Of a stretch of 64,000 bases of DNA, positions 15,088 to 33,028 are shown in pieces. Positions within the stretch are counted from its first letter, which is position 1. Every line of letters starts with the position of its first letter. Source of the stretch: Anaerolineae bacterium (lineage in GTDB: Bacteria; Chloroflexota; Anaerolineae; UBA1429); assembly GCA_050949345.1 (NCBI GenBank), contig JBMNFN010000001.1, positions 620,786 through 684,785 on the forward strand. Direction: 5' to 3'. Under the pieces are notes generated by a model, which saw only the letters and a program-made list of their open reading frames with translations, made no database searches and had not been told where the DNA came from. A program made the position numbers and the translations under genes.

Positions 15088-15109
15088 CCCCACAGCTCTG
15101 TCCAACTGG

Positions 15110-15143: not shown

Positions 15144-15161
15144 GACCGTCAGCGGGACCAC

Positions 15162-16615
<1,454 letters not shown>

Positions 16616-16631
<16 letters not shown>

Positions 16632-17887
16632 TCGGCCTGTTCACTCTGCAGTCTGTGCAACAATTCCCCGGCCCGGGGAACCAATAGAATACCCTCGTCC
16701 TCCCGGTTCGCATACTGGGCCAAATCCATGCTGGCAGGATCCCGGTACCCCAGGTTGACCCGCTCGCAACGCTCCCGCGGCACACCGGTGGCCAGCACCA
16801 CCTCCACGCGGGGACGCTCCACGCCGCTCTCATAGGTGCCGGCGCCCTTGACCAGGGTGGCGTGGGTCATGACGCCTCGGGACTCGCCCGCAAAGCGATC
16901 CATGTGCGCCAGGTAATAATCGCGCACGTGGTAGCCGATGCGGTCGAGCGCCGCACCGTGGGTGTAGGATATCTCGTCGATATGCGGGGCATAGATGATC
17001 ACCGTGCCGCCATCGGCCACCACGGGCTCTACCTTGTACATGCCCTTGCTGGCCGTCCAGATGTCATCGTACAGATCGGGCATCACCGATACGACCGTAT
17101 GAAAGGGATGGGGCATCCAGCGGATGTTGACGCGGGCCGAGATCTCGGCGGCGGCGGCCTGCGCCAGCTCTGGCGTCCCCCAGAACAATCCCGCCAGATC
17201 ATGCTCGCCCACCACCGCCATGGCAAAGCAGGAGCGCTCCCTCGGGATGAGCGCGGCGGCGCGATTCAACAGCTCGCGCATGGGCGTATTCTGGCGCCCG
17301 ATGGTCCAACGGTTGGTGAGCAGCGCCCCGAGCCAATGGCTCAGATCGATCACCCCAGGACCGCTGATGCCGGGGAAAAAGTACTTGTTGCCCCCGGAAA
17401 AGCCCACCACCTCGTGCGGAAACACCGGTCCACAGATCAACAGGTGGTCATAGTCCAGGACCCGTCGGTTGATCTCAACCGGCAGCGCCTCGTGCAGCAG
17501 GCCGTTGCTGAGCGCGGCGATGTCCTCCGCAGGAATGGTGCCCAACAACGTCAGATCGTGAACATAGTCATGGTTATAGAGGCCCACCCGACCATAGGTG
17601 CTGGCGCGCTCCTCGAGGGTGATGCCCAAGTGTCGGCACAGGCGCTCCTCGTCCAGCGGGGCGTGGGTGCCCAGGGCGATGAGCACATCCAGCGCAGCCA
17701 CCTGTGGCAGGAGGGCATCGGCAAGCGTACGGAAACAGAGCGCCGTGGGGCCGCTGCGCGTGGTGTCAGGCAGAATGAGCAGCACGCGCCGATTGCGCAG
17801 GCCGGCCTGCTCCACGCCCTGCCTCAGGATACCCTGGGTCTCTTCCAGCGTAAGAAAGCGGTTGCTGAAACCTTTGCCCACCAGCAT
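16616..17887 (-). CDS. LarA-family (nickel-pincer-nucleotide dependent) 2-hydroxyacid racemase/epimerase homologue
   Basis: The N-terminal LarA_N (DUF2088) region has LILPDTTRSGP. The block FPHEVVGFSGGNKYFFPG matches the LarA GFSGGRK motif that carries the cofactor-bearing lysine. About 423 aa, the same as LarA. Confidence 0.7.
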
Positions 17888-17891
17888 GTTG

Positions 17892-18809
17892 TTACCTCTC
17901 CCAGGGCGGTCTGCTGGGCAGCGCCTCTTGAAAAGCTACCAGCAACCCCGCCTCATAGGCAGCGGTATAGCCGCCATCGAAAAAGCGCCCGAGCGCCTCT
18001 TTTTCAAAGAGACTCCAACTGGCATCCTCCGCGCCCGGGACGATTGGGAAGAACCGAGCGCCGACAGCACGGGCAGCGGCCACATCGCCCAGGGCATCGC
18101 CGATCATCAATACGTGCCCCGCAGGGTAGGAGGCAGCGCCCGCCTTGACCAAATGCTCCTGCTTGGTGCCCATCTCCTGCCCATTGATGGCACTCACGAA
18201 TTGGTCAATGCCGTGCTCTCGCCACTCTCTCTCCAGCGCTTCGGTTGGAGTCTGCGAAACGACCACCACTTGCGCTTCGCTGGCCATCCTTTCAAGGCTG
18301 GTTCGAGCCTGGCCAAAGGGAGAGATCCCGTGAACGATCTCCTCAATGGCCCGGTTCACCGCTTCGCTCCATTCCAGAGCCCGTTCCAGCTCGGGATCCC
18401 CTGTCTGGGCGATGCGGCGAACCAGCGTGAGGTTGCTGGGAGCGACCTCCTCCTGTACCAGGGCACGCACCGCCGGCAGGGGCGGGACGCAAAAGCCACG
18501 CGCCTGAACGGCGGGCATGGCGGCCAACAGATCCAACGTTTTGACGAGGGCCGGCCAGCGGTTCGTGCCCCTCCAGGCACTGTATAGATTGACGAACTCG
18601 GCGGCCTGGCGCGCATAGCGAGACACGGCCTGCAGACCCCAATAACGGATGGTGGCCGGAATAAAGCACTCTTTGTGTTTGCACTCCATGGTGTCAAACA
18701 CGCAGCCATCCGAGTCGACGCCCACCAGGAAGGAGTGGGCAGCTGAATTCTCTGGCTGGCTGTGCGGCACGCCCAAGGTTGCCGCGCCGCTGGCGCTAGA
18801 TGCCGGCAT
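17892..18809 (-). CDS. HAD-superfamily hydrolase (phosphatase)
   Basis: HAD motif I LVGVDSDGCVFDT and motif IV IGDALGDV. The start is uncertain among ATG 18809, 18827 and 18848; all of them overlap the SDR 3' end. Confidence 0.6.
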   Translation of the reverse strand: MPASSASGAATLGVPHSQPENSAAHSFLVGVDSDGCVFDTMECKHKECFIPATIRYWGLQAVSRYARQAAEFVNLYSAWRGTNRWPALVKTLDLLAAMPAVQARGFCVPPLPAVRALVQEEVAPSNLTLVRRIAQTGDPELERALEWSEAVNRAIEEIVHGISPFGQARTSLERMASEAQVVVVSQTPTEALEREWREHGIDQFVSAINGQEMGTKQEHLVKAGAASYPAGHVLMIGDALGDVAAARAVGARFFPIVPGAEDASWSLFEKEALGRFFDGGYTAAYEAGLLVAFQEALPSRPPWER

Positions 18810-19626
18810 AGGCCGTGAGGCCGCCATCGACGACGATGGTGGCGCCATGCACAAAACTCGCCGCCGGGGAAAGCAGCCAGAGCACCGCACCCACCAACTC
18901 ATCCGGGCGACCGTAGCGTCCCAGTGGAGTATGGGACACGATGGCGTGTCCGCGTGGTGTAGCCTCGCCCGTCTCCCGGTCCAGCAGCAGATAGCGATTC
19001 TGCTCGGTCAGCACGAAACCGGGAGCGATGGCATTGACCCGCACGGCCGGGCCCACCTCCTGTGAGTAGTACACTGCCAGCCAGCGGGTAAGGCTGATGA
19101 CCGCTGCCTTGGCTGCATTATAGGCCGGCACCCGTGTCATCGGACGTTTGCCCGACACGGAGGCGATGTTCACGATGGCCCCACTCTGGTTGGCAGCAAA
19201 CACCCGGCCGAACACCTGGCTGGGCACCCACATCGCCAGGCAATTCAAGTCCATCACGCTGCTGAAAGCCTCCACGGGCATGTCGAACAGCGACGCATCG
19301 GGACCAGTGGTGGCCGCAGCCCGGTTGCCGCCGGCGCCGTTGACCAGGCCCGTCACCGTGCCGTAGCGTGCGAGCACCTGCTCCAGCGCACTTTCCACCG
19401 ACACGCGATCCAGCGCATCACAAGGCACCGCCAGTGCATCACCTCCCTGGGCTATGATCGCCTCGGCGCTGCTCTGGGCGGCCTCTGGCCGAATATCGAG
19501 GATGGCGAGCCTGGCTCCTGCGCGCGCCAGCCCACTGGCGATGGCCGAGCCCAGCACCCCGCCACCACCGGTCACCGCCACAACCTGACCCCTCAGAGAG
19601 AACAGCTCCTCAAGATATTCCGTCAT
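18796..19626 (-). CDS. Short-chain dehydrogenase/reductase (SDR) family oxidoreductase
   Basis: TGGGGVLGSAIA glycine-rich NAD(P) motif, the catalytic YNAAKAA (YxxxK), and NAIAPG. Confidence 0.85.
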   Translation of the reverse strand: MTEYLEELFSLRGQVVAVTGGGGVLGSAIASGLARAGARLAILDIRPEAAQSSAEAIIAQGGDALAVPCDALDRVSVESALEQVLARYGTVTGLVNGAGGNRAAATTGPDASLFDMPVEAFSSVMDLNCLAMWVPSQVFGRVFAANQSGAIVNIASVSGKRPMTRVPAYNAAKAAVISLTRWLAVYYSQEVGPAVRVNAIAPGFVLTEQNRYLLLDRETGEATPRGHAIVSHTPLGRYGRPDELVGAVLWLLSPAASFVHGATIVVDGGLTAYAGI

Positions 19627-19643
19627 GGTGCATCGACGCTCCT

Positions 19644-21155
19644 TCAGGCAAAGGGCTGAATGTGTCGCATAAAGTGGACTTCCAAGCCCCTGTAGTGCGC
19701 CTCTTCGTGGGCGTTGAGCAGGGAAAAAATACGCTCACTAAAGAGGGAGGGGTGTCCCTGGTCACCACTCAACACCACACCAAAGGCCACATGCAGCACC
19801 TGGCGCGCATCAAAATCGCTCAGCAGCGAGGGCAGGTCGCTGTCCGGCACGCTGGCGGGATCGGGAACACGCTTCAGCTCTGCTGAAACGTGATAGGAGC
19901 GACGCTCGTACTCGTATCGTTCCGCAGACAAAGCCAGGATCTCGCGAAAGAGAGCCGGCTCGGACTGGGCGACTACCCGCAGTGCCTCGAGATAGCTGGT
20001 GCCCGCCGTCTTCAGGTGAACCAGGTCGCCCGCGTGGCGTGCCGCAATGGGATAGATGGAAAACTTGTCCGAGCCCGAGTGCAGGCTGAGCTTGTAGGGT
20101 CCCAGCGCCCGGGCGATGGCCACGTGCCAGGCCCAGTCCTTCTCAAAAGTGCCCAGGTCGCCGATATAGTCCACGCCTTTTTCAAAGCGCCCCACATACC
20201 GCGGGGCCAGAGACACCCAGTCGACACCCAGCCTCTGCAACTCTCTGGCGATGAACCAGTGCTCCGCGGGACGGGTTGGGGTATCGGTTTCATCCACCGA
20301 TACCTCCACCTCCCAGGGGGCGCCGGCACGCACCCTGCGCAGATGCTCATACAGATCACGGATGTGCGCCAACGCCGCGCCATACTTGCAGGCGGCCCGC
20401 AAAAAGCCCAGCTCGTCCAGCGCGATCACCCGACGCCCGGAGAGCGCCCAGCTGTTGCCCACGTAGCGACGGTAGAGCTCGCCCGCTGTGACACCCAACT
20501 CCCCCCAGGGGAGCGCGGCGTACTTGTCCCGGAGCACCGGCAACGCATCGCTCTCGGCGTCGTTGTCCACCTGATCGCGAGGATCAAAGGTGTACATGAT
20601 ATAGCCGGCAGCGACGCAGCGATCGATATCCTCGGTGGTCTTGAGATGATCGGCGTCGGCCCCGTGCGGTGCACGCCAGCCCTCCTGCAACACACCAAAA
20701 GTGGCGTCATCCAGCACCTGCTCCGGCGTTCGACCGGTGCGCTCCATCTCACGTATGGACTGTTGGGCATACACGGGGACGATCCCCTGTACATGCCGCA
20801 TGGCACGAATGTGTCCGGGCGTTGCCAGACCCAGGCGATCGCCGAGCCCGGCGCTCTTGTGCACACCCACCAGCGAGGGAGCGGTAAAGGGAAGCAGCTG
20901 ACGCAGGCGGCAGGCGTTGGCGTGATCCAACGGCCCCAGGCCCAACCAGTGGGCCTCGTTCTGCCACAGACAGCGCTCCAGCACCACATTCAGGCCCAGC
21001 GGATCGCCGCTGCGACCGAGGACCGCCAGACGTCGGCCCTCCGGACGCCGCACGAGAAACAAGGTGTGTTCCCCTACCGCGTTCAGCGACTGCGGATAGA
21101 CCTCCCCACCCGCGATCGCTGCCAATTGTCGAGTCGTAGCGCTCTGTTCTGCCAT
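19644..21155 (-). CDS. UxaE-like putative tagaturonate/fructuronate epimerase (TIM-barrel sugar-acid epimerase family)
   Basis: About 500 aa with features I associate with the UxaE family (HLKTAGTSYLEAL, DPRDQVD); the family assignment is from memory rather than a search. Start placed at MAEQ, which has an AAGGGGTGA Shine-Dalgarno. Confidence 0.4.
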   Translation of the reverse strand: MAEQSATTRQLAAIAGGEVYPQSLNAVGEHTLFLVRRPEGRRLAVLGRSGDPLGLNVVLERCLWQNEAHWLGLGPLDHANACRLRQLLPFTAPSLVGVHKSAGLGDRLGLATPGHIRAMRHVQGIVPVYAQQSIREMERTGRTPEQVLDDATFGVLQEGWRAPHGADADHLKTTEDIDRCVAAGYIMYTFDPRDQVDNDAESDALPVLRDKYAALPWGELGVTAGELYRRYVGNSWALSGRRVIALDELGFLRAACKYGAALAHIRDLYEHLRRVRAGAPWEVEVSVDETDTPTRPAEHWFIARELQRLGVDWVSLAPRYVGRFEKGVDYIGDLGTFEKDWAWHVAIARALGPYKLSLHSGSDKFSIYPIAARHAGDLVHLKTAGTSYLEALRVVAQSEPALFREILALSAERYEYERRSYHVSAELKRVPDPASVPDSDLPSLLSDFDARQVLHVAFGVVLSGDQGHPSLFSERIFSLLNAHEEAHYRGLEVHFMRHIQPFA

Positions 21156-21312
21156 CAGCGTCGTCACCCCTTTGTCCCTGGGTTTGCGGATGCAGCGCAA
21201 GGGTATCTGGAACACGGAGCGCTGTCAACGACGTGCACGCCACGAGAAACCCTTGCGCACGAGGGAAGCCAGGGGTATCATGGTACGCGAGGCTATCCGC
21301 AGGAGGTGTGTC

Positions 21313-22539
21313 ATGACTGACTTGCCCCGTCCCATCGTGCGCGCTGTGCATTGCGAGCATACAGCCTCCGATGAGGCTGTGTATCAGGCGCTGGTGCGCG
21401 CCAACGAGCCGCTGAGCGCCGCCTGGAAGCGCCTCGCCAACGCACGCCGCATCACCATCAAGATGAACCAGGCCTGGGATCCGGCCCGGCGCCCCCTCTA
21501 CCTCGGCCGCTATCAGGAACTGGTAGATCCTGCGGTGGCGCGGGCGGTTCTCCGCCTGCTGCGCGAGCGCACCACTGCCGAGCTGCGCTGCGTCGAGATC
21601 GCCACCATGATCCGCGGCCGGGACGATTTGAGCTTTGACCAGGCACAGAACCTGCGGGACGTGTTCGCCGAGTTTGGCGTGGTGATCGAGAATGGGAACA
21701 CCGCCCCCCATGGCCTGTACCCGGTGCCCGGTGGAGGCAGCATGTTCCGCCAGTACCAGCTGCCCAGCATTGCTGTCGAGACCGATGCCTTTGTGACCGT
21801 TCAAAAGATAAAGAACCACAAGTTTATGGGCGTGACCCTCGGGCTCAAGAACTTGTTTGGCCTGCCACCCTACGATCCGTATGGCCGGCCGCGGCAATAC
21901 TTTCACCATCTCGTGCGCCTGCCCCACGTGCTGGTGGACCTGGGGCGTATCATCGATCCGGCCCTCACCATCCTGGATGGACTCACCTGCCAGTCGGGCG
22001 GCGAGTGGGGTGGCGATGGACTGGTGGGCGACACGCTGCTGGCGGGCGATCAGGTCATTGCCACCGATGCGGTGGCCACCCACCTGATGGGGCACGATCC
22101 TCTCGGGGACTGGCCAAACCAGCCCTTTGTGCGCGATCGCAATGCGTTGCTGCTGGCGCATCAGTCCGGCTTTGGAACCGCCTGCTTGAACGAGATCGAC
22201 TGGACCTCGGAGGTGCAGGCGCCCATCGGCCAGTTCCTGACCACGGTGACCGATCCGCCGGAGCGGGTTCTGGCCTGGCGACGCTCCACCTGCGAACAGG
22301 CGCTCTACTATCGCGACCACATCGAGTCCTTTGTTGAGCGTTATGCCGGCCAATGGGTGTTGATCCAGAACAACCAGGTGGTGTGGCAGAGCTCCGAGCC
22401 CGCCCTGCCCGCCAGCCGGCGCATCCTGGCCGGTGGAGACGAGGACGCCGCCCTCTTTTTCAAGTACGTCGATCCAGAAGAGGCAGAGGGCGAGCACTGG
22501 GAGGTCTACGAGCGCGAGCTGGAGGCGATGGGCCGGTAG
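21313..22539 (+). CDS. DUF362 domain protein (paralog A)
   Basis: KNHKFMGVTLGLKNLFG and C-terminal ATHLMGHDP blocks are shared with the second DUF362 protein at 57367. AGGAGG Shine-Dalgarno 6 nt before ATG 21313. Confidence 0.65.
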   Translation: MTDLPRPIVRAVHCEHTASDEAVYQALVRANEPLSAAWKRLANARRITIKMNQAWDPARRPLYLGRYQELVDPAVARAVLRLLRERTTAELRCVEIATMIRGRDDLSFDQAQNLRDVFAEFGVVIENGNTAPHGLYPVPGGGSMFRQYQLPSIAVETDAFVTVQKIKNHKFMGVTLGLKNLFGLPPYDPYGRPRQYFHHLVRLPHVLVDLGRIIDPALTILDGLTCQSGGEWGGDGLVGDTLLAGDQVIATDAVATHLMGHDPLGDWPNQPFVRDRNALLLAHQSGFGTACLNEIDWTSEVQAPIGQFLTTVTDPPERVLAWRRSTCEQALYYRDHIESFVERYAGQWVLIQNNQVVWQSSEPALPASRRILAGGDEDAALFFKYVDPEEAEGEHWEVYERELEAMGR

Positions 22540-22561: not shown

Positions 22562-24034
22562 GTGAGCAGAGACAAGCGACCCAATATCCTCATCTTTCAG
22601 GTGGATCAGGAGCAGGGCCAGGTGACCATGCCCGGCCATCCTTGTCGGACGCCCAATGCTGACCGATTGGCTGCAGAAGGCGTACGCTTTACCCGGGCAT
22701 ACACCATCGCTGCTCACTGCTGCCCGTCCCGCGCCTCGTTCATGTCGGGGCTGAACCCCAGCGGCCACGGCATCTATAACAATGTGCTCAATCGCGCCGC
22801 CATCCACACCTCGTTGAACGCCGGTGTGACGCTGTGGAGCGAGGTACTGGCAGAATCCGGCTACAACCTGGCCTACTCGGGCAAGTGGCACGTTTGCGCG
22901 GACCGGGGCCCGGCAGACGTGGGCTGGAAAGACTATGGGGCTACCTCTGTGGGCGGACGTGATCATCACGGCACCACCTGGGAGGACTGGCGTCTACGGA
23001 CTGCCCAACCGCAAGAGGAAGGGCCGCGTCAACGGGGCACGCTGTTGCGGCCCGGCTGGGGTACCTTGCGCCTTTACGGCACGGGTGGTACCACGCCCGA
23101 GGCAGAACCGTTTACAGAGGGGGATTATCGCATCGTTCAGAACGGGCTGCAGGCGTTGCGTGATCTCACCGCTCAAGATTCGCCCTGGTGCCTGTACATC
23201 GGCCCTAACGGCCCCCACGATCCCTACATCATCCCCGAGCACTATGCCAGGATGTATGATCCTGCCAACGTGCCGCTGCCTCCCAACTGGCACGACGACC
23301 TGCAGGACAAGCCCCGGGTCTATCAGCGGCAGCGCCATTTGTGGAACCAGCTGGGCGAGGACGAGTATCGCGAGGCCATCGCCCATTACTGGGGCTACTG
23401 CACCATGCAGGATGACCTGCTGGGTCTGGTGCTGGACGCCCTGGACCAGACAGGTCAGGCGGACAACACCCTGGTGCTGTTTACCTCTGACCACGGCGAC
23501 TATGCAGGCGCCCACGGCCTGTTCGCCAAGGGCGTAGCCGCCTTTGACGAATGTTATCGCGTGCCCTGGATCATGCGCTGGCCGGCGGGGGTTCGAAATC
23601 CCGGGCGCGAGGTCAGCAGCCTGATTACGCATCTTGATATCGCGGAGACTTTGACCGAGCTGGCAGGGACACGCATGCCCGCAGCAACCAGCGGCAGCAG
23701 CCTGCTTCCCTGGTTGCGCGATGACCCCTCCGCTACTGCCGCTGAGGCTGTCTTTAACCAGTTCAACGGCGTAGAGCTGTACTATTCTCAGCGCATGGTG
23801 CGTACCCAACGCTGGGTGTTCGTCCACAATGGGTTTGACGTCGACGAGCTGTACGACCTGGCGACGGATCCCTGGTGCCTCACCAATCGCGCGGAGGATC
23901 CTGCCTGTCGCGCCGTGGTCAAGGACCTGAGCCGTTTGATGTGGCGCCAGGCTTGCGAGCAGGACGACATTGTCGGAAACCCGTACATGACGGTGGCCCT
24001 GGCTCCTTTTGGCCCCATGGTTGCCTTTGAGTGA
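22562..24034 (+). CDS. Cys-type sulfatase (formylglycine-dependent arylsulfatase family)
   Basis: RPNILIFQVDQ N-terminus and the sulfatase signature AHCCPSRASFMSGLNP (C-x-P-S-R). GTG start with a GGGGGA Shine-Dalgarno, 22 nt after the DUF362 stop. Confidence 0.8.
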   Translation: MSRDKRPNILIFQVDQEQGQVTMPGHPCRTPNADRLAAEGVRFTRAYTIAAHCCPSRASFMSGLNPSGHGIYNNVLNRAAIHTSLNAGVTLWSEVLAESGYNLAYSGKWHVCADRGPADVGWKDYGATSVGGRDHHGTTWEDWRLRTAQPQEEGPRQRGTLLRPGWGTLRLYGTGGTTPEAEPFTEGDYRIVQNGLQALRDLTAQDSPWCLYIGPNGPHDPYIIPEHYARMYDPANVPLPPNWHDDLQDKPRVYQRQRHLWNQLGEDEYREAIAHYWGYCTMQDDLLGLVLDALDQTGQADNTLVLFTSDHGDYAGAHGLFAKGVAAFDECYRVPWIMRWPAGVRNPGREVSSLITHLDIAETLTELAGTRMPAATSGSSLLPWLRDDPSATAAEAVFNQFNGVELYYSQRMVRTQRWVFVHNGFDVDELYDLATDPWCLTNRAEDPACRAVVKDLSRLMWRQACEQDDIVGNPYMTVALAPFGPMVAFE

Positions 24035-24051: not shown

Positions 24052-25185
24052 CTAGATGTCGGCCACACCGCCATCGGGCCAGAAGGAGCCCGGATAGTCG
24101 CGGGGCTGATACGGCATCTTGTCGATGGCGTCCCAATTCAGCGTGACGCCGAGGCCCGGCGCCTGGGGCAGCTGTACGTATCCATCGACGATGGACAGCG
24201 GCTCAACCAGCACCTGATCTCGCCAGGGTTGGTTCTCTGCGTACTCCAGGATGGTAAAGCCCGGCAGGCAGGCTGCCAGCTGCAGGGAAGCGGCGGTGGC
24301 TACCGGTCCATTGGGGTTGTGCGGCGCCACAGACAGGTGCCAGGTCTCTGCCATGGCAGCGATCTTGAGTGTCTCGAAAATGCCCCCGTCATGGCACACA
24401 TCGGGCTGCACGATGTCGACACACTGTCGCTCCAACAGCTCGCGATAGCCCCACTTGGTAAAGAGGCGCTCGCCGGTGGCCAGTGGCACCCCGGCTTCGG
24501 CCCGCGAGACACGCATCAACTCGTCGACATTCTCGGGCGGTACCGGTTCCTCCAAAAACGCCAGATCCCATGGCTTGAGCACGTGCAGCAGCCGGATGGC
24601 CTGTCCAGCGGTGAGTCTCCCGTGGGCATCCATCATGACTTGTACGTCCTGGCCCACGGCACCGCGCAGCACGCCCAGGCGCTCATCGATGGCATCCAAC
24701 CAGCGTCTCTCATTGGCATAGAGCTCAGGTCCGGGGCAACCGATCTTGAGCGCGCCCCAGCCTCGGTCCACCAACTCCTTGGCGCGAGCGGCCAGGTCCT
24801 CTGGTGTGGCGCCGCCACAGTGCGTGTAGAGTTGGATGCGATCTCGACAGGCACCGCCCAACAGCCGGTAGACCGGCACGCCGAGATCCTTCCCGGCAAT
24901 GTCCCAGAGTGCCTGTTCGATGCCGCTGAGGGCGCTGTCGAGGACGATGCCCCCTCGCCAAAAGCCATGGCGATACAGGATCTGCCAGTTGTGCTCGATG
25001 CGGCGAGCGTCGCGGCCCAGCAGCGGTCGCGAGAGATCCGCTACCGCCGAGCAGACTGCCTGCTCCTTGCCCTCTACGCTGGCCTCACCGACTCCGGTGA
25101 TGCCTGCATCAGTCTCTACCACCACGAACACCCAGGTCTGCCTGCCTCCATAGGCCAGGCGGGTCGTAACGGACGTGATCTGCAT
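24052..25185 (-). CDS. Enolase-superfamily dehydratase, mannonate/galactonate dehydratase-like (paralog 1)
   Basis: MQITSVTTRL .. WVFVVVETDAGITGVGEA N-terminal capping domain and an MR/MLE barrel (KIGCPGP, MMDAHGRL, EEP, DIVQPD). GGAGG Shine-Dalgarno before ATG 25185. Confidence 0.75.
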   Translation of the reverse strand: MQITSVTTRLAYGGRQTWVFVVVETDAGITGVGEASVEGKEQAVCSAVADLSRPLLGRDARRIEHNWQILYRHGFWRGGIVLDSALSGIEQALWDIAGKDLGVPVYRLLGGACRDRIQLYTHCGGATPEDLAARAKELVDRGWGALKIGCPGPELYANERRWLDAIDERLGVLRGAVGQDVQVMMDAHGRLTAGQAIRLLHVLKPWDLAFLEEPVPPENVDELMRVSRAEAGVPLATGERLFTKWGYRELLERQCVDIVQPDVCHDGGIFETLKIAAMAETWHLSVAPHNPNGPVATAASLQLAACLPGFTILEYAENQPWRDQVLVEPLSIVDGYVQLPQAPGLGVTLNWDAIDKMPYQPRDYPGSFWPDGGVADI

Positions 25186-25252
25186 CTCAACCTCCTGCGG
25201 GACCGCTGGTGCTGTCTGCCTCCGACGCAGCCGATCGCGCTCCACGGCCGGC

Positions 25253-25281
25253 TTGGTGCAAACGGCAGCAGCATCTACAAT
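25253..25281 (+). promoter_or_regulatory. Candidate promoter (TTGGTG-17-TACAAT) for the M42-LarC1-GT-GH-ManD operon
   Basis: -35 at 25253-25258 and -10 TACAAT at 25276-25281, 33 nt upstream of ATG 25314, with a GAGGTG Shine-Dalgarno. Confidence 0.4.
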
Positions 25282-25313
25282 ACGCGAGAATGGATACACG
25301 CGCGAGGTGTTGC

Positions 25314-26414
25314 ATGATTGGGACAGCCACCATCGACCAAACCTATCTGATGAAATCGCTCGTCGCGTTGCTGGAGATGCCCAGCCCCACGGGCTATCAC
25401 CGTCCGATCATCGCCTGGCTGGAGGGCACCATCGCCGCGCTCGGCATCTCCGGGTTGCAGATGGTCAAGACGCGCAAGGGCGCCCTGTGCGTCACCCTGC
25501 CCGGCACCTCGCCGCAGGGCACCCGCGCCCTCTCCGGACACATCGACACGCTGGGCGCCATGGTGCGGGCGATCAAACCCAATGGGCGATTGATGCTGAC
25601 CCAGCTGGGCGGCTATGCCTGGAATGCTGTAGAGAGCGAAAACGTGACGGTATACGCCGTTTCTAACGGGCGCACGGTACGGGGGACGATCCAGACGGTA
25701 AGCCCCAGCGTGCACACGGGCCCGGATGTCTATGACGGCAAGCGCAATGACGAGCGCATGGAGGTGCGGCTGGATGCCCGCACCAGCTGTACAGCGGACA
25801 CCCGTGCGCTGGGCATCGACGTGGGGGATTTCGTGTTTTTCGATCCAAGGGTCGAGTGCACCGATACTGGCTATATCAAGAGTCGTCATCTCGATGACAA
25901 GGCCGGCGTGGCAGTGATGCTGGCCGTGTTGCAGGCCCTGGCCGCGTGCGGTGGGGCGCCGGCGGTCCGCACCTCCTTTTACTTTAGCAACTATGAGGAG
26001 GTGGGCCATGGCGCTGCCACGGGCCTGCCTGCGGACCTGCAGGATCTGCTGGTGATCGATATGGCGGCCAGCACCACCGGCGAGCATCAGAATTCGGACG
26101 AGTACTCGGTCGGGATCTGCGCCAAAGACTCCTCGGGTCCCTATGACCTGGAGCTGCGCCGCGAGCTGGTGGCGCTGGCGCAGCAGCACCAGATCCCCTA
26201 TCGTATCGACACCTATCCCCGCTACGGTTCCGACGGCAGTGCGCTGTTGCGTGCCGGCGGCGATGTGCGCGTGGGACTCATCGGCCCCGGGCTGGACGCC
26301 AGCCATGCCTATGAACGCACCCACGTGGACAGCCTCATGGCCACCGCGCGCCTGGCGCTGGCCTATGTTCAGAGCACCTGGCAGGGTACTGATGTAAAGG
26401 ATGGCTTGCCGTGA
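25314..26414 (+). CDS. M42 family peptidase (FrvX/glutamyl aminopeptidase-like)
   Basis: M42 organisation with metal-ligand blocks (SGHIDTLG, HLDDKAG, NYEEVGHGAA); about 366 aa. Confidence 0.7.
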   Translation: MIGTATIDQTYLMKSLVALLEMPSPTGYHRPIIAWLEGTIAALGISGLQMVKTRKGALCVTLPGTSPQGTRALSGHIDTLGAMVRAIKPNGRLMLTQLGGYAWNAVESENVTVYAVSNGRTVRGTIQTVSPSVHTGPDVYDGKRNDERMEVRLDARTSCTADTRALGIDVGDFVFFDPRVECTDTGYIKSRHLDDKAGVAVMLAVLQALAACGGAPAVRTSFYFSNYEEVGHGAATGLPADLQDLLVIDMAASTTGEHQNSDEYSVGICAKDSSGPYDLELRRELVALAQQHQIPYRIDTYPRYGSDGSALLRAGGDVRVGLIGPGLDASHAYERTHVDSLMATARLALAYVQSTWQGTDVKDGLP

Positions 26415-27256
26415 CCAAGATCGCTTACCTGGACTGTTTTTCCGGCGCCGCTGGCGACATGATCCTCGGATCGTTGCTGGACGCTGGCTACCCTCTGGAG
26501 GATCTGCGCCGAGGATTGGCTGCCCTCAAGGTGGAGGGTTACGAGCTGACCCTGGCCCCTGTGCGCCAGCACGGCATCACGGGCAGCAAGTTCGATGTCA
26601 TCGATCACGCTCAAGAGCAACCGGTTCGCAATCTCTCGCTGGTAGGAGAAATCCTGCAGAACACAGATCTGCCGGCCGATGTGATTGAGAAAAGCCTGCG
26701 TGTGTTTACGCGGTTGGGCGAGGCAGAAGCCAAGGTGCACGGTGTGACACTGGATGAGGTCCACTTTCATGAGGTGGGTGCTGTAGACGCCCTAGTGGAC
26801 ATTGTGGGCACCTGCCTGGCGCTGCACGACCTGGGCATCGAACGGGTTTACGCATCGGCCTTGCCCCTGGGCAGCGGCACCGTTCGCACGGACCACGGCC
26901 TGCTGCCGGTGCCCGCCCCGGCGACGCTGGCATTGCTGACAGCTGCCGGCGCTCCCACCATCCCCAGCGACGCCCGGGGGGAACTGGTTACGCCCACGGG
27001 GGCTGCGTTGCTCACCACGCTGGCAACCTTTGAACGCCCCGCCATGTGCGTGCAGCAGGTGGGATATGGTTTCGGCAGTCGCGTCATGCCCTGGGCCAAC
27101 ATGCTGCGGGTGTGGATTGGTGAGGCGGTTGCCCACGTGCCCCCTGCAGCCCACGCACAGGTGCATCCGTCGCCGCACGGGCATCCTCACGACCACGGGC
27201 ATTCCCATCCGCACCCCCACCACCATGGTCCCGACAGCGAGGGTGAGCAGGAGTGA
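26411..27256 (+). CDS. LarC N-terminal domain protein (LarC1-like nickel-binding domain of the NPN nickel insertase) with a His-rich tail
   Basis: MTKIAYLDCFSGAAGDMILGSLLDAG is the canonical LarC/DUF111 N-terminus. The C-terminal tail is HPSPHGHPHDHGHSHPHPHHHG. There is a 4-nt ATGA overlap with the M42 gene, and no LarC2-like ORF follows. Confidence 0.75.
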   Translation: MTKIAYLDCFSGAAGDMILGSLLDAGYPLEDLRRGLAALKVEGYELTLAPVRQHGITGSKFDVIDHAQEQPVRNLSLVGEILQNTDLPADVIEKSLRVFTRLGEAEAKVHGVTLDEVHFHEVGAVDALVDIVGTCLALHDLGIERVYASALPLGSGTVRTDHGLLPVPAPATLALLTAAGAPTIPSDARGELVTPTGAALLTTLATFERPAMCVQQVGYGFGSRVMPWANMLRVWIGEAVAHVPPAAHAQVHPSPHGHPHDHGHSHPHPHHHGPDSEGEQE

Positions 27257-27323
27257 GTGCCTGATGCAGCTCCAGCCGGCAGCGGGACAAAAGCATTCCA
27301 GCATAGAGGCCGGCTCGGGGCGT

Positions 27324-28421
27324 ATGCAGATCCTGGCGCTTGAACCCTACTGTACCGGCTCCCACCGCGACTGGCTCGAGGGCTATGCCCGGGCCAGTCG
27401 CCACCAGGTGGTGACCCTCACCATGCCGGGACAGTTCTGGAAGTGGCGCATGTACGGCGGAGCCGTTACGCTGGCGAGGCGTCTGAGCGAACTGGACACA
27501 CGGCCGGACCTGATTCTGGCTACCAGCATGCTGGATGTGGCCACCTTTCTGGCACTCTCCCGCCAGCGCACCTGGGACATTCCAGTGGCGCTGTACATGC
27601 ACGAGAACCAGCTCACCTACCCGATGCGTCCCGGCGAAAAGCGCGACCTGCACTTTGGGCTGGTCAACTATACCTCGATGCTGGCTGCCGACCGCGTGCT
27701 GTTCAACTCTCGATTTCACCTGGAAGCCTGGTTCGACGAGCTTCCCCGCCTGCTCAAACACCATGCGGATTTCAATGAGCTGGACACCATCCCCCTGCTG
27801 CGAGGCCGCTCCGCGGTCCTGCCTCTGGGCATCGACCTCGCCAGTCTCGATCGCGCACGCCCCAGCCAGCCCCGCAGCGGCCCCTTGCTGATCCTGTGGA
27901 ACCACCGCTGGGAGTATGACAAGGATCCGGCCAGCCTGGTCCAGGCGTTGGACAGGCTGATGGATTGGGGCGGCGAGTTCGAGGTAGCCTTGCTGGGTGA
28001 GCGCTTTGTGAGCGAGCCGCCCGCCTTTGTGGAGGCACGGGAGCGCCTGGGCAGCCGCCTGGTGCACTATGGCTATGTTCCCAGCCGGCAGGCGTATGCC
28101 CGCTGGCTGTGGGAGGCGGACGTGGTGGTCAGCACCGCGATCCATGACTTTTTCGGGGCTGCAACGGTGGAGGCCATGTACTGTGAGTGCTGGCCCCTGC
28201 TGCCCAATCGGCTCGCCTACCCGGAACTGGTCCCGCCAGAGTATCACGGACGCTGCCTGTATGCCAGCCTCGATGATCTGGTGGAGCGTCTGCGCCAGGC
28301 AGCACAGGATCCCATAGCGTTGCGGCAAGGATCGACGTTGCGTTCGGCAGTTGCCCAGTATGATTGGCGAAGGATGGCACCACAATACGACGCCATCCTG
28401 GAGGAAATGGTGCGCCACTGA
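27324..28421 (+). CDS. DUF3524-type glycosyltransferase (GT-B, GTDC1-like)
   Basis: MQILALEPYCTGSHRDW is the N-terminal signature of DUF3524. The C-terminal half looks like GT1/GT4 (EAMYCECWPL). An alternative ATG at 27264 is possible. Confidence 0.55.
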   Translation: MQILALEPYCTGSHRDWLEGYARASRHQVVTLTMPGQFWKWRMYGGAVTLARRLSELDTRPDLILATSMLDVATFLALSRQRTWDIPVALYMHENQLTYPMRPGEKRDLHFGLVNYTSMLAADRVLFNSRFHLEAWFDELPRLLKHHADFNELDTIPLLRGRSAVLPLGIDLASLDRARPSQPRSGPLLILWNHRWEYDKDPASLVQALDRLMDWGGEFEVALLGERFVSEPPAFVEARERLGSRLVHYGYVPSRQAYARWLWEADVVVSTAIHDFFGAATVEAMYCECWPLLPNRLAYPELVPPEYHGRCLYASLDDLVERLRQAAQDPIALRQGSTLRSAVAQYDWRRMAPQYDAILEEMVRH

Positions 28422-28566
28422 GGCGCAAAACGGCCCTCCCTTCGTCCCCCTGGTCCCCAGTTGCCCCCTTGGTCCCCTGACAGCCCTGCCGGTGCCCTGC
28501 CTTGCGATTGACGACGAGCGGCCCCTTGCCGTATTGTTCCCAGGAGTTGCACCAAGGAGGTACAGC

Positions 28567-30558
28567 ATGCACGCTCTGCCCATGCGCCAGGTCCATCTGG
28601 ACTTTCACACCGCCGGTCAGATTTCCGATGTGGGCGCCGACTGGAGCGCCGAGGCCTTTGTCGAGACGCTCCGCAGGGCCCACGTGAATTCGATCAACCT
28701 GTTTGCACGCTGTCATCATGGTTATGTCTACTATATGCCCTCGCGCTATGCCATACATCCGGCGCTCACCTTTGACCTTCTGGGCGAGCAAGTTTCGGCC
28801 TGTCGCTCTGTGGGCATCGCCAGCCCGGTGTATATCACCGTGGGTTGGGATGAGCTGGCGGCGGCGCGGCACCCAGAGTGGCTGGAAGTCACGCCCGAGG
28901 GGGTATTGGGGCAGCACAGCCCGCTGGAGGCCCGTTGGAAGAAATTGTGTCTCAACTCGCCCTATCTGGACTATGTCCTGGACCAGGCGCGGGAATTGAT
29001 CGAGCATCTGGGCGGCGCGGTCGACGGACTGTGGTACGACATTCTGCATCAGGGCGAGTGCGTGTGTGGCTATTGCCGGCGCGACATGCTGCGCCAGGGG
29101 CTGGACCCTGCCCGAGCGGAGGATCGGCAGGCCTTTGCCGCCTGCGTGCGTAACCGGGCCCGCCAGCGCCTGTATGAGGACGGCGAGGCTCGCGTGCCGG
29201 GCACGATGACCTTTTTCAATTCGGGGCATGTGGGCTACGACCAGACGATCCAAAGCTTGCCTTACTTTACACACTTTGAGCTCGAGTCTCTGCCGAGCAC
29301 GGGCCAGTGGGGCTACAGCCACTATCCCATCAGCGTGCGGTATGTGCGGACCCTGGGCAAGCCGCACCTGGGGATGACGGGCAAGTTTCACACCTCCTGG
29401 GGAGATTTTTCCTCACTCAAGAATCAGGCCGCACTCGAGTTCGAGTGCTTTCAGATGCTCGCCAACGGAGCGGCAGTGTGCATCGGCGACCAGCTGCACC
29501 CCCGGGGCAGACTCAACCCGCCCACCTATGACCTGATCGGCCGCGTGTACGAGCAGGTCGAGGCCAAAGAGCCCTGGTGTATCGACGCCGCGCCGCAGGC
29601 CGAGATCGCCGTGTTCAACGTCGAAGCGGTGGGCACAGAGGATGGCAGGGTCGACTCCAGCAACGCCGGTGCGTTGCGCATGCTCATGGAGGAGCATCAG
29701 CAGTTTGACTTTATCGACCAGCGTGCCGATTGGAGCCGCTACAAGGTCATCATCTTCCCCGACAAGGTTCCCTTTGACGAGGCGCTGGCCGCCCGGGTAC
29801 GCCGCTTCCTGCAGGGAGAGGGACGGGTCATTGCCAGCTACCGCGCTGGTTTGACGCCCGCAGGCGACCGTTTCGCCCTGCCCGAGTTTGGGCTGAACGT
29901 GATCGGCGAGGCACCCAACCATCCAGACTATCTCCGGGCTGCCGCCGAGCTGCGCGCCGACCTGCCGGATACCGAGTTGGTGATGTACGAGCGTGGCCTG
30001 GAGACGAGGGCACTGGAGGGCACCAGGGTGCTGGCCACGGTAACGGGTCCCTACTTTAATCGGCAGTGGGATCACTTTTGCTCCCATCGGCAGACCCCGA
30101 TGGACCCGAACAACGTTGCCCCCTACCCTGCCATCACTCAGTCGGCGGATGGCAAGGTGATCTATTTCGCGCACCCCATCATGGCGGGGTATCGATTGCA
30201 GGCGCCTCTCTGGTACAAGCGACTCCTGGCGGCGGCCCTGGGGCTGGCACTGCCCGAGCCAATGGTGCTCAGCGATGCACCCAGCAGCGCACAGGTGACC
30301 GTCACCCGGCAAGCCGACCAGGCGCGGACCATCGTACACCTGCTGCACTATGTGCCCGAGCGGCGCGGCCTCGAGTTTGATACCATCGAGGATGTTATTC
30401 CGCTGCACCAGGTGCGCGTGGGCCTCAGGGCAGCCGACCGCCCTGCCCGCCTGTATCTGGCGCCGGACGGCCAGGACTTGCCCTTTGAGTACGCCGATGG
30501 GCGTGTATGGTGCACCGTGCCCCGTGTGGATGGCCACGCCATGCTGGTGATCGAGTAG
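28567..30558 (+). CDS. Putative glycoside hydrolase (GHL6-like TIM barrel plus beta-galactosidase-trimerisation-like domain)
   Basis: VHLDFHT, CHHGYVYY and NSPYLDYV blocks suggest a hypothetical-glycosyl-hydrolase TIM barrel; the C-terminal part resembles Glyco_hydro_42M. AAGGAGG Shine-Dalgarno before ATG 28567. Family assignment is tentative. Confidence 0.4.
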   Translation: MHALPMRQVHLDFHTAGQISDVGADWSAEAFVETLRRAHVNSINLFARCHHGYVYYMPSRYAIHPALTFDLLGEQVSACRSVGIASPVYITVGWDELAAARHPEWLEVTPEGVLGQHSPLEARWKKLCLNSPYLDYVLDQARELIEHLGGAVDGLWYDILHQGECVCGYCRRDMLRQGLDPARAEDRQAFAACVRNRARQRLYEDGEARVPGTMTFFNSGHVGYDQTIQSLPYFTHFELESLPSTGQWGYSHYPISVRYVRTLGKPHLGMTGKFHTSWGDFSSLKNQAALEFECFQMLANGAAVCIGDQLHPRGRLNPPTYDLIGRVYEQVEAKEPWCIDAAPQAEIAVFNVEAVGTEDGRVDSSNAGALRMLMEEHQQFDFIDQRADWSRYKVIIFPDKVPFDEALAARVRRFLQGEGRVIASYRAGLTPAGDRFALPEFGLNVIGEAPNHPDYLRAAAELRADLPDTELVMYERGLETRALEGTRVLATVTGPYFNRQWDHFCSHRQTPMDPNNVAPYPAITQSADGKVIYFAHPIMAGYRLQAPLWYKRLLAAALGLALPEPMVLSDAPSSAQVTVTRQADQARTIVHLLHYVPERRGLEFDTIEDVIPLHQVRVGLRAADRPARLYLAPDGQDLPFEYADGRVWCTVPRVDGHAMLVIE

Positions 30559-30574
30559 ACGCCCGTCTGGAGGA

Positions 30575-31768
30575 GTGTCCGTGAAGATAACGTCAGCCGA
30601 GATCTATCACATCGAGCCGCCTCATAACGCCCAGGGCCTCAGCCTCGTGATGCTGCGACTCTGGACCGATGCCGGCATCTATGGCCTGGGAGAGGTGGCT
30701 CTGGCCTATGGTACGGGCAGCGCGGCTGGAGCCGCCATGGTGCGCCAGCTGGTGGAGCGCTATGCCTTGGGAGCAGATCCCTTTCGCATCGAACAGCTGT
30801 GGCACCGGATGTTCCGCGAGACCTTTTGGGCGCTGGGCGGCGGCCCAGTGGTATACGGCGGCATGAGTGCCATCGATGTAGCCCTGTGGGACATCAAGGG
30901 CAAGGCGCTGGGCATGCCCGTGTATGAGCTGCTCGGTGGGCTGGTACAATCGCGCATCCGCCTGTATGCCAATGGCTGGTCCAACCTGACGGGTGAGGAT
31001 GGCCGCCCGCTGGTGTGCCGACCAGAGGAATATGCCCGTGCCGTACAGCGGGTGTTGCAGGATGGCTATACCGCGCTCAAGTTCGATCCGTTTTACATCA
31101 ACGCGTCACGCCGGCGCTGGCATCCCGGCCCGCTGCTGGACCGAGAGATGACCGAGCTGGCCGTGGCCAGGGTCGCGGCGGTGCGCGAGGCCGTGGGGCC
31201 CGAGGTCGAGATCTGCATCGAGGTGCATGGCGCCCTGGGCGTCAATACCGCCATCGAGGTCGGCAACCGTCTGGTAGAGAGCCGTCCCTTTTTCTACGAA
31301 GAGCCCGTCCACGCCCTGAATGTGGACGCCATGCGCAAGGTGGCCCGCCGTGTACCCCTGCCCATCGCCGCTGGTGAGCGCCTCTATACACGCTTTGGCT
31401 TTCGCGAGTACATCGAAAAGCAGGTGGTGGATATCATCCAACCCGACATCAGCCTGGCGGGGGGGCTGACCGAGACGAAAAAGATCGCCGACTATGCTGA
31501 CACCTATGGGATCCACGTGCAGCCGCATCTGTGCGCCGGTCCGGTCCACACGGCTGCCTGCATCCAGCTGGATGCGGCCATGCCCAACCTGATCATCCAG
31601 GAGTGGCGGCCCTATGCCGGCGACTCGATGCTGGAGCTGGTCAACGAGCCGCTGGATGACAAGGCGCGGCACGGTTACCTGGAGGTGCCGCAGCGACCCG
31701 GGCTGGGCGTAACTGCGAATGAACCTGTGCTGGCGCGCTATCCGTGCGTGCATATCGCCGTGGACTAG
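30575..31768 (+). CDS. Enolase-superfamily dehydratase, ManD/GalD-like (paralog 2)
   Basis: KITSAEIYHIE .. GIYGLGEVA N-terminal domain, then WDIKGKALGMPVYELLGG, KFDPF, EEP and DIIQPD barrel motifs. Confidence 0.75.
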   Translation: MSVKITSAEIYHIEPPHNAQGLSLVMLRLWTDAGIYGLGEVALAYGTGSAAGAAMVRQLVERYALGADPFRIEQLWHRMFRETFWALGGGPVVYGGMSAIDVALWDIKGKALGMPVYELLGGLVQSRIRLYANGWSNLTGEDGRPLVCRPEEYARAVQRVLQDGYTALKFDPFYINASRRRWHPGPLLDREMTELAVARVAAVREAVGPEVEICIEVHGALGVNTAIEVGNRLVESRPFFYEEPVHALNVDAMRKVARRVPLPIAAGERLYTRFGFREYIEKQVVDIIQPDISLAGGLTETKKIADYADTYGIHVQPHLCAGPVHTAACIQLDAAMPNLIIQEWRPYAGDSMLELVNEPLDDKARHGYLEVPQRPGLGVTANEPVLARYPCVHIAVD

Positions 31769-31787
31769 CGCTAACCGAGGAATGAGC

Positions 31788-32969
31788 ATGAAGATCACCG
31801 CCGTACACATTTACGACTGCAAGCTGTATCCGCATGCCACGGCGAACAACCTGGTGCTGCTCTTGCTCCAGACAGACCAGGGGATCGAAGGCCTGGGTGA
31901 AGTCTCCCTGGCTTATGGCGCCGGTGCCACAGCGGCTGTGGGCATGTTGCGTCAACTGGCAGAACGCTTTCTGCTGGGTGCCGACCCCATGCACATTGAG
32001 CAGATGTGGAACCGCCTCTTTCGGGGCACCTTCTGGGGCCAGGGAGGCGGTCCAGTCCTCTATGGGGCCATGAGCGCCATCGACGCCGCGTTGTGGGACA
32101 TCAAGGGCAAGCTGTTTGGAGTGCCCGCCTGGGAGCTGTTGGGGGGGCGCGTCAATGACCGTCTGCGGCTGTATGCCAACGGCTGGTACTCGCGCGACAG
32201 CGCGCAGGGGCGCGTGAACCTTGTAGAGCCAGCCGAATACGCCGAGCGCGCGCTGGCCGTCGTGGCGGATGGCTACACCGCTATCAAGTTCGATCCTTTT
32301 GTGGTGCTTGCCGACGGACGCCGCATCAACCCGCCGCGGCAGCTCCCCAGGGAACAGGCCGACCTTGCCATGGCGCGCGTGGCAGCCGTGCGGGAGGCGG
32401 TCGGGTCAGAGATCGATATCATGGTGGAGGCACACGGCAACCTTGGCGCCACCTCGGCGATCGAAATCGGGCGTCGTCTGGAAGAGTACCATCCCTTTTT
32501 CTTTGAGGAGCCCGTGGATGCCACCAACGTGGAGGCGATGGCCAAGGTGGTCGAGAGCATCCGCATCCCGGTGGCAGCAGGCGAACGCCTGTATACGCGG
32601 CACGACTTTCGACCGTATATCGAGCGGCAGCTTCTGGCGGTGATCCAACCGGACATGGGACTGGCCGGCGGGCTCAGCGAAGTGAAAAAGATCGCAGCCT
32701 ATGCCGAGACCTATGACATTCATGTGCAGCCCCACAACTGCGCGGGACCGGTTTCGACGGCCATGGCGGTGCAGCTCGATACCTGCATCACCAATTTCAT
32801 CATTCAAGAATGGTTTCCCTATCGCGACGCGCGCTATTATGAACTGGTGGAACACGCGCTGGATACAGATGCGGTGGACGGGTTCTATCGCCCTGGCGAC
32901 ACACCCGGTCTGGGTGTTACCCTCAACCGTGAGGTAGCACAGCGATACGAGCATCTGGTCGTGCGCTAG
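31788..32969 (+). CDS. Enolase-superfamily dehydratase, ManD/GalD-like (paralog 3, tandem to paralog 2)
   Basis: MKITAVHIYD .. GIEGLGEVS, WDIKGKLFGVPAWELLGG, EEP and VIQPD; it shares most motifs with paralog 2 immediately upstream. Confidence 0.75.
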   Translation: MKITAVHIYDCKLYPHATANNLVLLLLQTDQGIEGLGEVSLAYGAGATAAVGMLRQLAERFLLGADPMHIEQMWNRLFRGTFWGQGGGPVLYGAMSAIDAALWDIKGKLFGVPAWELLGGRVNDRLRLYANGWYSRDSAQGRVNLVEPAEYAERALAVVADGYTAIKFDPFVVLADGRRINPPRQLPREQADLAMARVAAVREAVGSEIDIMVEAHGNLGATSAIEIGRRLEEYHPFFFEEPVDATNVEAMAKVVESIRIPVAAGERLYTRHDFRPYIERQLLAVIQPDMGLAGGLSEVKKIAAYAETYDIHVQPHNCAGPVSTAMAVQLDTCITNFIIQEWFPYRDARYYELVEHALDTDAVDGFYRPGDTPGLGVTLNREVAQRYEHLVVR

Positions 32970-32987
32970 TGGGTTGCAGGACACTTT

Positions 32988-33028
32988 AAAAAAAAAGCCA
33001 GCGGTGCAGTCTCTCCTGCACCGCTGGC
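32988..33028 (-). terminator. Rho-independent terminator of phoU (minus strand), abutting the end of the plus-strand operon
   Basis: 13-bp stem GCCAGCGGTGCAG / CTGCACCGCTGGC followed on the minus strand by a 9-nt U-tract (A9 at 32988-32996 on the plus strand), 22 nt past the phoU stop. Confidence 0.8.

Follow-up and report, generated by a model that had tools for sequence, protein, structure and literature searches.

We analyzed positions 24052-33028 of a 64-kb stretch from an uncultured Anaerolineae bacterium (contig JBMNFN010000001.1; G+C about 64%; the whole stretch is called the window below). A preliminary description of this region had proposed one composite sugar-acid island with three ManD-like dehydratase genes of the enolase superfamily. 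The analysis showed that the interval is probably a lineage-specific mosaic of separate transcription units, lying between a hexuronate operon and the pst-phoU operon. A DUF362-sulfatase unit (plus strand) would lie just outside the region. Inside it, a monocistronic DgoD-type galactonate dehydratase gene, eno1 (minus strand), would be an insertion shared by the closest relatives only. The genes for an M42 peptidase, a stand-alone LarC1 and a QTMAN_N glycosyltransferase (GT) would form a plus-strand unit with its own promoter. The GH151 glycoside hydrolase gene and the tandem dehydratase genes eno2 and eno3 would form another plus-strand unit with its own promoter, which would be a catabolic operon and the sole likely one here. 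All genes belong to known families, and the region is mostly ordinary and no new kind of catabolic island; the GH151-dehydratase operon and the stand-alone LarC1 trio are two modest leads.

The map was made from the open reading frame (ORF) listing and Pfam/NCBIfam scans, and the gene calls of JGI metagenome contig Ga0591960_0000013, which carries a 100% identical eno2, agree with it. ORF and Pfam data placed all seven genes where the preliminary description had put them and bore out its domain-level calls. The features of the region are as follows.

24052-25185, minus strand: eno1, DgoD-type dehydratase gene, monocistronic and convergent with the sulfatase gene (MR_MLE_N and MR_MLE_C; NF010624).
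25253-25281, plus strand: promoter-like site P1, TTGGTG-17-TACAAT, read from the sequence, 32 nt 5' of the M42 start codon.
25314-26414, plus strand: M42 metallopeptidase gene, first in the putative M42-LarC1-GT unit (Pfam Peptidase_M42, 236 bits).
26411-27256, plus strand: stand-alone LarC1 gene, 281 aa (Ni_insertion 1-236 of 375; nickel_LarC1, 213 bits).
27324-28421 (alternative start 27264), plus strand: gene for a QTMAN_N (formerly DUF3524) GT-B glycosyltransferase, 365 aa (QTMAN_N, 195.8 bits).
28508-28537, plus strand: promoter-like site P2, TTGACG-18-TATTGT, from the consensus scan, inside the 145-bp gap 5' of the GH151 gene.
28567-30558, plus strand: GH151 glycoside hydrolase gene (Pfam GHL6 and Glyco_hydro_42M; PDB 6TVK, E 6.9e-149).
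30575-31768, plus strand: eno2, STM2273/2GL5-family dehydratase gene (MR_MLE_N and MR_MLE_C; PDB 2GL5/4E6M).
31782-32969, plus strand: eno3, tandem paralog of eno2 (57.6% identity to eno2).
32997-33028, minus strand: hairpin of the phoU intrinsic terminator (13-bp stem, then T9 on the minus strand).

The order of these genes was compared with that in other genomes. The roughly 90 related loci (numbered with L below) were GH151-homologue neighborhoods, 80 GH151 loci from species-representative genomes, and loci around eno2 and GT homologues; all were scored by tblastn. The full order UxaE, DUF362, sulfatase, eno1 (minus strand), M42, LarC1, GT, GH151, enolases and phoU was found only in L006 (76-82% protein identity) and partially in L016. 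The arrangements elsewhere, and the enolase genes of L006, were these.

L001, L007, L087: M42-LarC1(-GT) ... GH151-eno-eno-phoU; no eno1, no sulfatase gene.
L009, L088: GH151-eno-eno-phoU, with other genes upstream.
L002, L012: a single enolase gene after GH151.
L004, L005, L010: GH151 beside phoU, no enolase gene.
L006: three enolase genes after GH151 (12030-15650), one of eno2 type and two of eno3 type.
L174: an eno3-type gene beside phoU, no GH151.
L090: SDR-UxaE (minus strand), LacI (minus strand), sulfatase-M42-LarC1-GT (plus strand); no eno1, GH151 or tandem enolase genes.

The number of enolase genes after GH151 ranges from 0 to 3 in the clade. An enolase gene directly follows GH151 in 10 of the 15 loci with a GH151 identity of at least 60%, and in none of the 61 loci below that value, which come from many phyla. 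Orthologues of eno1 were found in L006 and L016 only among the loci compared. A single composite sugar-acid island had been made dependent on conserved synteny, and it did not pass this test, as the modules occur separately in relatives and a CBM9-like gene splits the run there. LacI or GntR genes were found at neighboring positions in relatives. The window has no transcription-factor domain between an ECF sigma gene (11530-12186) and phoB (40527-41447) by domain scans; the absence of an adjacent regulator reported earlier was thus correct, although it is not unusual, being unremarkable for separate units. In L090 the sulfatase gene stands directly 5' of M42-LarC1-GT, and the LacI gene takes the place of the DUF362 gene.

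The CBM9-like gene encodes 219 aa on the minus strand and lies between GT and GH151 in L001, L002, L004, L005, L006, L007, L008, L016 and L087 (for example, at 9210-9863 in L006 and 9189-9845 in L001). These nine loci are all the close relatives that have the GT-GH151 interval on a contig; the gene adjoins GT in L091 too. In some relatives the interval also contains either GH127 or a TPR protein gene together with genes for hypothetical proteins. No trace of the CBM9-like gene was found in the window, where just the 145-bp spacer at 28422-28566, with the GH151 promoter motif, is left. Because the CBM9-like gene intervenes in relatives, the unbroken same-strand run of the window is the result of a genome-specific deletion, and one such deletion can make unrelated units resemble a single operon.

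The spacing of the genes and the promoter-like sites were also investigated. M42 and LarC1 overlap by 4 bp, the LarC1 stop is 7-67 bp from the GT start, depending on the start chosen, and the gaps are 145 bp between GT and GH151, 16 bp between GH151 and eno2, and 13 bp between eno2 and eno3. A consensus scan of 17 kb listed 4 promoter-like sites, compared with 3.1 expected by shuffling; it detected P2 and no site between GH151, eno2 and eno3. The M42/LarC1 overlap and the two short gaps after GH151 fit co-transcription inside each unit. The tight plus-strand run described previously was therefore confirmed in its short gaps, but not across the 145-bp gap, which contains the conserved P2. In P2, the hexamer TTGACG and the pattern TA..GT (N17/18) are invariant in six genomes, while the mean column identity of the spacer is 58% (alignment A2). 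P1, from which the whole run had been thought to be expressed, is indeed present at 25253-25281, but its -35 hexamer matches the consensus in only 3 of 6 positions, and the site lies below the threshold of the scan. With these values and the 4 sites against 3.1 expected, P1 is at chance level on the window sequence alone. However, TTGGYG-N17-TACAMT followed by a GAGGTG ribosome-binding site precedes M42 in the window and in both L006 and L016, although the surrounding spacer has diverged, and this conservation supports a promoter 5' of M42. Separate conserved motifs before M42 and before GH151 argue for two candidate promoters in place of the single one.

Downstream of eno3 lies the hairpin at 32997-33028. 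It has a 13-bp stem with 10 G-C pairs; on the plus strand A9 lies upstream and GGTCACGC downstream, with no U-tract, and the terminator scan listed it on the minus strand only. The strong terminator noted before is therefore a real hairpin but not a bidirectional one: since the T run is on the minus strand only, it is a canonical terminator for phoU alone.

The hydrolase of the fourth unit had been called GHL6-like. This domain call was right, and the match to PDB 6TVK (ALfuk2 of Paenibacillus thiaminolyticus) refined the family to GH151: query residues 4-663 aligned with chain residues 30-686 at E 6.9e-149. In the active site of ALfuk2, Asp154 is the nucleophile, Glu235 the acid/base and His503 a complementing residue contributed by the neighboring monomer (PMC10154630). 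This catalytic trio aligned with identical residues of the window protein, WYD(158)IL, ELE(240)SLP and FCSH(507)R, and is invariant in 16 homologues. By these alignments the protein is a member of the GH151 alpha-L-fucosidase family. The order of the GHL6 barrel, the GH42M-like domain and the C-terminal domain is the same in both proteins. In contrast to ALfuk2, the window gene stands directly 5' of two enolase genes, a pattern absent from the 61 more distant GH151 loci. The window protein has no signal peptide, and because its start falls directly at the catalytic domain it is predicted to be cytoplasmic; an NCBI entry for a Chloroflexi bacterium (MAG) is 100% identical to it. In a distant uncultured bacterium (L021, 9962-13153; GH151 49% identical), a full-length LarC gene of 390 aa directly follows GH151; no other distant locus shows this pairing, which may be a coincidence.

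The three dehydratases were scored against family models. Only eno1 passed the galactonate dehydratase model NF010624 (363 bits; cut-off 311), which eno2 (287.6 bits) and eno3 (279.4 bits) failed. None of the three reached the ManD equivalog NF043051 (cut-off 550; eno1 260, eno2 195 and eno3 210 bits) or the ManD subgroup model NF011654 (cut-off 430; 253, 188 and 204 bits, respectively). The ManD subgroup has a specific catalytic loop with a Tyr/Arg base. ManD structures gave partial alignments with the window enolases at 130-220 bits, and that with eno1 came in two pieces with a break at about residues 150-155. The window proteins share superfamily and fold with ManD but score far below both of its models, and the label ManD-like could not be kept for any of them. 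For eno1, described as a divergent third ManD-like paralog, the minus-strand placement holds, but the protein is of DgoD type by NF010624. Nor are the three paralogs of one subgroup, as eno1 shares 37-38% identity with eno2 or eno3, while these two share 57.6%. The best solved relative of eno1 is PDB 3RR1, whereas those of eno2 and eno3 are PDB 2GL5 and 4E6M (E 1e-107). Gene callers set the eno2 start two codons 3' of its GTG start.

The metal-ligand positions and the His-Asp positions typical of GalD-like enzymes are kept in all three enolases, and by these residues the window dehydratases are catalytically complete. eno1 has the D-x-H, E, E, D, H pattern of DgoD but, unlike DgoD, has no dgo partner genes nearby; dgoK, dgoA, dgoR and dgoT were not seen among the annotated window ORFs. 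In eno2 and eno3 the first metal-ligand motif is E-x-H, as in 2GL5 and 4E6M. These two proteins are about 43% identical to STM2273 (2GL5/4E6M), a "putative dehydratase" of Salmonella, by tblastn and share its remaining metal-ligand and His-Asp positions. The Salmonella gene lies between ubiG and gyrA, beside a GntR regulator gene and an MFS transporter gene, while the window genes are tandem duplicates after a glycosidase gene, with no regulator or transporter gene. Another homologue of eno2 and eno3 (59% identical, in L173) occurs with IclR, sulfatase, MFS and Amidohydro_2 genes, and the Amidohydro_2 family includes sugar lactonases. The Salmonella and L173 contexts support an aldonate role of the eno2/eno3 family. 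The L173 genes may form a self-contained aldonate/lactone catabolic cluster that could hint at the substrate of this family. The same stretch of L173 (2009-12527) also holds a HAD hydrolase gene, an MlrC-like gene and a Rieske protein gene. A literature search on STM2273, 2GL5 and TM0442 gave nothing useful.

A neighbor-joining tree built with the enolases of all loci, without bootstrap support and to be read as a sketch only, separated an eno2 type (the first gene after GH151) and an eno3 type as two orthogroups. The single-copy enolases of L002, L012 and L174 grouped with the eno3 type, the third enolase of L006 had arisen later as an eno3-type duplicate, genes from Salmonella and Caballeronia were sister to eno2 plus eno3, and eno1 fell far outside with its L006 and L016 orthologues. 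Because two orthogroups are kept across relatives, the eno2/eno3 duplication would be old with both copies retained, and this retention is compatible with diverged specificities. The idea of diversifying dehydratases was thus borne out for eno2 and eno3, with two retained orthogroups and a copy number of 0-3, but not for eno1, which lies outside the pair.

A chemistry for the GH151-eno2-eno3 unit can be proposed. The cytoplasmic GH151 enzyme would free a terminal alpha-L-fucose or L-galacto-configured sugar from imported oligosaccharides, a dehydrogenase and a lactonase encoded elsewhere would oxidize the sugar to the aldonate, and eno2 and eno3 would turn L-fuconate- or L-galactonate-like aldonates into 2-keto-3-deoxy acids. 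We hold this fucose/fuconate chemistry to be tentative, a possibility somewhat on the unlikely side. SAR202 Chloroflexota grow better on fucose, fuconolactone and fuconate, and their expanded COG4948 paralogs and sulfatases have been proposed to act in non-phosphorylative routes (PMC10444878). The window resembles this system in its phylum, multiple enolase paralogs, sulfatases and the proposed aldonate dehydration. However, SAR202 has 80 paralogs and no fucosidase families, whereas in the window there are three enolase genes and two of these are coupled to GH151. A clade-specific GH151-dehydratase operon would extend the deoxy-sugar catabolism proposed for SAR202 to Anaerolineae, and it could be a guide to the substrates of an enolase family that has structures and no named function.

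The M42-LarC1-GT unit was also examined. All three genes occur together in the window and in L006, L007, L016, L087 and L090, and M42-LarC1 occurs in L001 too. The M42 protein scored 323 bits against TIGR03106, below the cut-off of 398. In LarC1, the Pfam Ni_insertion match ends at position 236 of 375, and the nickel_LarC1 score of 213 bits is above the cut-off of 90. Residues D16, E106, H110, H118, H120 and H162 are invariant in the clade alignment (A3), and the His cluster and acidic-pocket residues are essential in Moorella thermoacetica LarC (PMC13510736). The window protein thus resembles the LarC proteins of L. plantarum (LarC1/LarC2) and M. thermoacetica in its intact LarC1 domain, His cluster and acidic pocket. 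It lacks their linker and their CTP-binding domain, LarC2, for which no downstream frame is available either. tblastn with the LarC2 domain found no LarC2 in the window or in the loci of five relatives, and searches for LarB and LarE genes were equally negative in the window and the relatives' loci. The stand-alone LarC1 proteins have 277-308 aa and are encoded in the window, L001, L002, L006, L007, L016, L087 and L090. About 30 of the best 150 cluster representatives of LarC1 homologues are shorter than 320 aa and the others have about 390-420 aa, a distribution in which true stand-alone proteins and truncated gene calls are inseparable. A stand-alone LarC1 beside M42 and GT genes raises the question of how, or whether, LarC1 joins nickel-pincer cofactor synthesis. 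In the LarC1-only proteins of the window, L001, L002, L006, L087 and L090, a His-rich tail with HxH repeats, which varies in length, replaces the linker and LarC2. An aldehyde:ferredoxin oxidoreductase gene directly follows the stand-alone LarC1 gene in L002 (1402-4378); the window homologue of this gene is at 5081-7219, 20 kb from LarC1.

The glycosyltransferase matched QTMAN_N in full (1-168 of 168, 195.8 bits) and Glycos_transf_1 at 33.6 bits, and shares 100% identity with an NCBI "DUF3524 domain-containing protein" of a Chloroflexi bacterium (P0391). With its full QTMAN_N domain and GT1-type C-terminal domain, it resembles vertebrate QTMAN (GTDC1, the tRNA-queuosine alpha-mannosyltransferase). 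The bacterial protein is shorter (365 aa), and its gene has M42/LarC1, CBM9 and GH127 genes as neighbors in the clade. The window showed no tgt or que genes. In Chloroflexota, GT homologues at 56-68% identity make up more than 120 cluster representatives, and they occur in unrelated contexts (L092, for example). This wide occurrence suggests a housekeeping rather than a catabolic role. No evidence tying M42-LarC1-GT to sugar-acid metabolism was found.

The genes on both sides of the region are as follows.

11530-12186: ECF sigma gene (domain scans).
15162-16631, minus strand: 6-phosphogluconate dehydrogenase gene (Gnd; Pfam/NCBIfam).
16616-17887, minus strand: gene for a LarA-family (GntE-type) protein (Pfam/NCBIfam, PDB match).
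17892-18902, minus strand: HAD hydrolase gene (Pfam/NCBIfam).
18796-19626, minus strand: SDR gene (Pfam/NCBIfam).
19644-21215, minus strand: UxaE gene (495 bits).
21313-22539, plus strand: DUF362 protein gene (Pfam/NCBIfam).
22562-24034, plus strand: Cys-type sulfatase gene (CxPxR motif, CCPSR).
3' of the hairpin, minus strand: phoU, an HD-domain gene, pstBACS, phoR and phoB (phoB at 40527-41447; ORF and domain scans).

UxaE, SDR, HAD hydrolase, the GntE-type LarA homologue and Gnd form the hexuronate operon (15162-21215, minus strand), which resembles the route by which Thermotoga takes hexuronates via mannonate and gluconate into the pentose phosphate pathway. Like the T. maritima UxaE/GntE2 cluster, it contains UxaE, SDR, a GntE homologue and Gnd; the window operon differs by its HAD hydrolase. 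No gluconate kinase gene was seen with it. The GntE homologue aligned over its full length with PDB 4NAR (E 6e-58) and keeps the GTH, PHE, GGxK and SHW motifs of that protein, which we take to correspond to LarA residues. The gene order of this operon was found again in 33 metagenomic loci, each at least 8 kb long, with SDR present in 30, UxaE in 22, Gnd in 18 and HAD in 16. PDB 4NAR holds the D-gluconate 2-epimerase GntE2 of T. maritima, which depends on the nickel-pincer cofactor (PMC7583248). With GntE, the genome appears to have a use for this cofactor, which does not explain the position of LarC1. The sulfatase has no signal peptide and is therefore probably cytoplasmic, and the window revealed neither an FGE nor an anSME maturase gene.

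These data allow several other explanations to be weighed against separate units. If M42, LarC1, GT, GH151, eno2 and eno3 were one operon driven from the promoter at 25253, they would make a new composite sugar-acid island together with the divergent eno1. In the window genome the six genes do lie on one strand, with mostly short gaps and no opposite-strand interruption, and their order is the same in L006 and L016. However, even these two relatives have the minus-strand CBM9-like gene between GT and GH151, six genomes share an invariant P2 motif 5' of GH151, the modules lie apart in L090, L001, L002, L004 and L174, and GT is very widespread in Chloroflexota in unrelated contexts (L092). No SusC/SusD-type or other transporter genes, as would mark a single operon or a polysaccharide utilization locus, lie adjacent. 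We regard the single operon as highly improbable. A larger sugar-acid supra-locus from 15 to 33 kb, working in trans, was also considered, in which LarC1 would mature the GntE cofactor while the sulfatase, the DgoD-type enzyme, GH151 and the dehydratases would process sulfated or acidic glycans. A GntE-type LarA homologue is indeed encoded 9 kb upstream, and enzymes of this type need LarB, LarC and LarE (PMC7583248, PMC11770544). UxaE and SDR share a neighborhood with sulfatase-M42-LarC1-GT in L090, and UxaE is near in L006 and L016. In the 33 metagenomic GntE loci, on the other hand, the UxaE-SDR-HAD-GntE-Gnd core is conserved, and none has LarC1, M42, GT, GH151, sulfatase or eno2/eno3 genes within 10 kb; moreover, this LarC1 lacks LarC2, and the window has no LarB or LarE. 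Such a supra-locus is very unlikely, and since none of the 33 loci carries genes of the region, the hexuronate operon is an independent neighbor. A placement of LarC1 because of GntE was rejected as a conserved linkage on the same count; a functional relation in trans may exist.

The link between GH151 and the dehydratases could also be purely positional, the genes sharing an inherited variable slot beside phoU, with co-transcription at most incidental and with unrelated substrates. All clade loci are anchored to phoU, GH151 stands alone in L004, L005 and L010 and an enolase gene alone in L174, none of the 61 distant GH151 loci has an enolase gene directly downstream, and pathway partner genes are not nearby. 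Against this, the 16- and 13-bp spacings without a promoter-like site between the genes fit co-transcription, and the pair or triplet is kept in 10 of the 15 clade loci, at GH151 identities down to about 62% and with wholly changed upstream flanks (L088, L009). We think a purely positional link unlikely. It is quite unlikely that M42-LarC1-GT, which at least six Anaerolineae genomes keep with differing flanks, are one functional module, with LarC1 handling nickel without LarC2 or with LarC2 in trans and GT serving housekeeping glycosylation, and that GH151-eno2-eno3 also provide a first physiological handle on the orphan STM2273/2GL5 family as L-fuconate/L-galactonate-type enzymes. The reading as separate units, with GH151-eno2-eno3 as the catabolic one, has several points against it. 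The promoters are called from motifs conserved in three to six genomes, and with the CBM9-like gene deleted, transcription from GT could run on into GH151 in the window genome. Because GH151 alone and an eno3-type gene alone (L174) occur beside phoU, the adjacency may be positional inheritance. Genes for a fucose dehydrogenase, a lactonase, a 2-keto-3-deoxy-acid aldolase or kinase and a transporter were not found beside GH151-eno2-eno3. Characterized L-fuconate dehydratases were not among the top 60 PDB matches of eno2 and eno3, whose nearest solved relatives bear no function in their PDB names.

Several minor observations were made in the window. An Rfam scan of the whole window detected tRNA-Leu only, and a repeat search of 23.5-33.5 kb returned chance-level matches and the eno2/eno3 paralogy only. 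The ORFs at 13492-15087 and 2345-3796 (both plus strand) are large and coding-like in composition, and no Pfam family reached the threshold in either; a faint glutaredoxin-like match is all that the first shows. The DUF362 gene at 21313-22539 and the UxaE operon are divergently oriented; this gene is 80% conserved in both L006 and L016, and a second DUF362 protein is encoded at 57367-58473 (plus strand).

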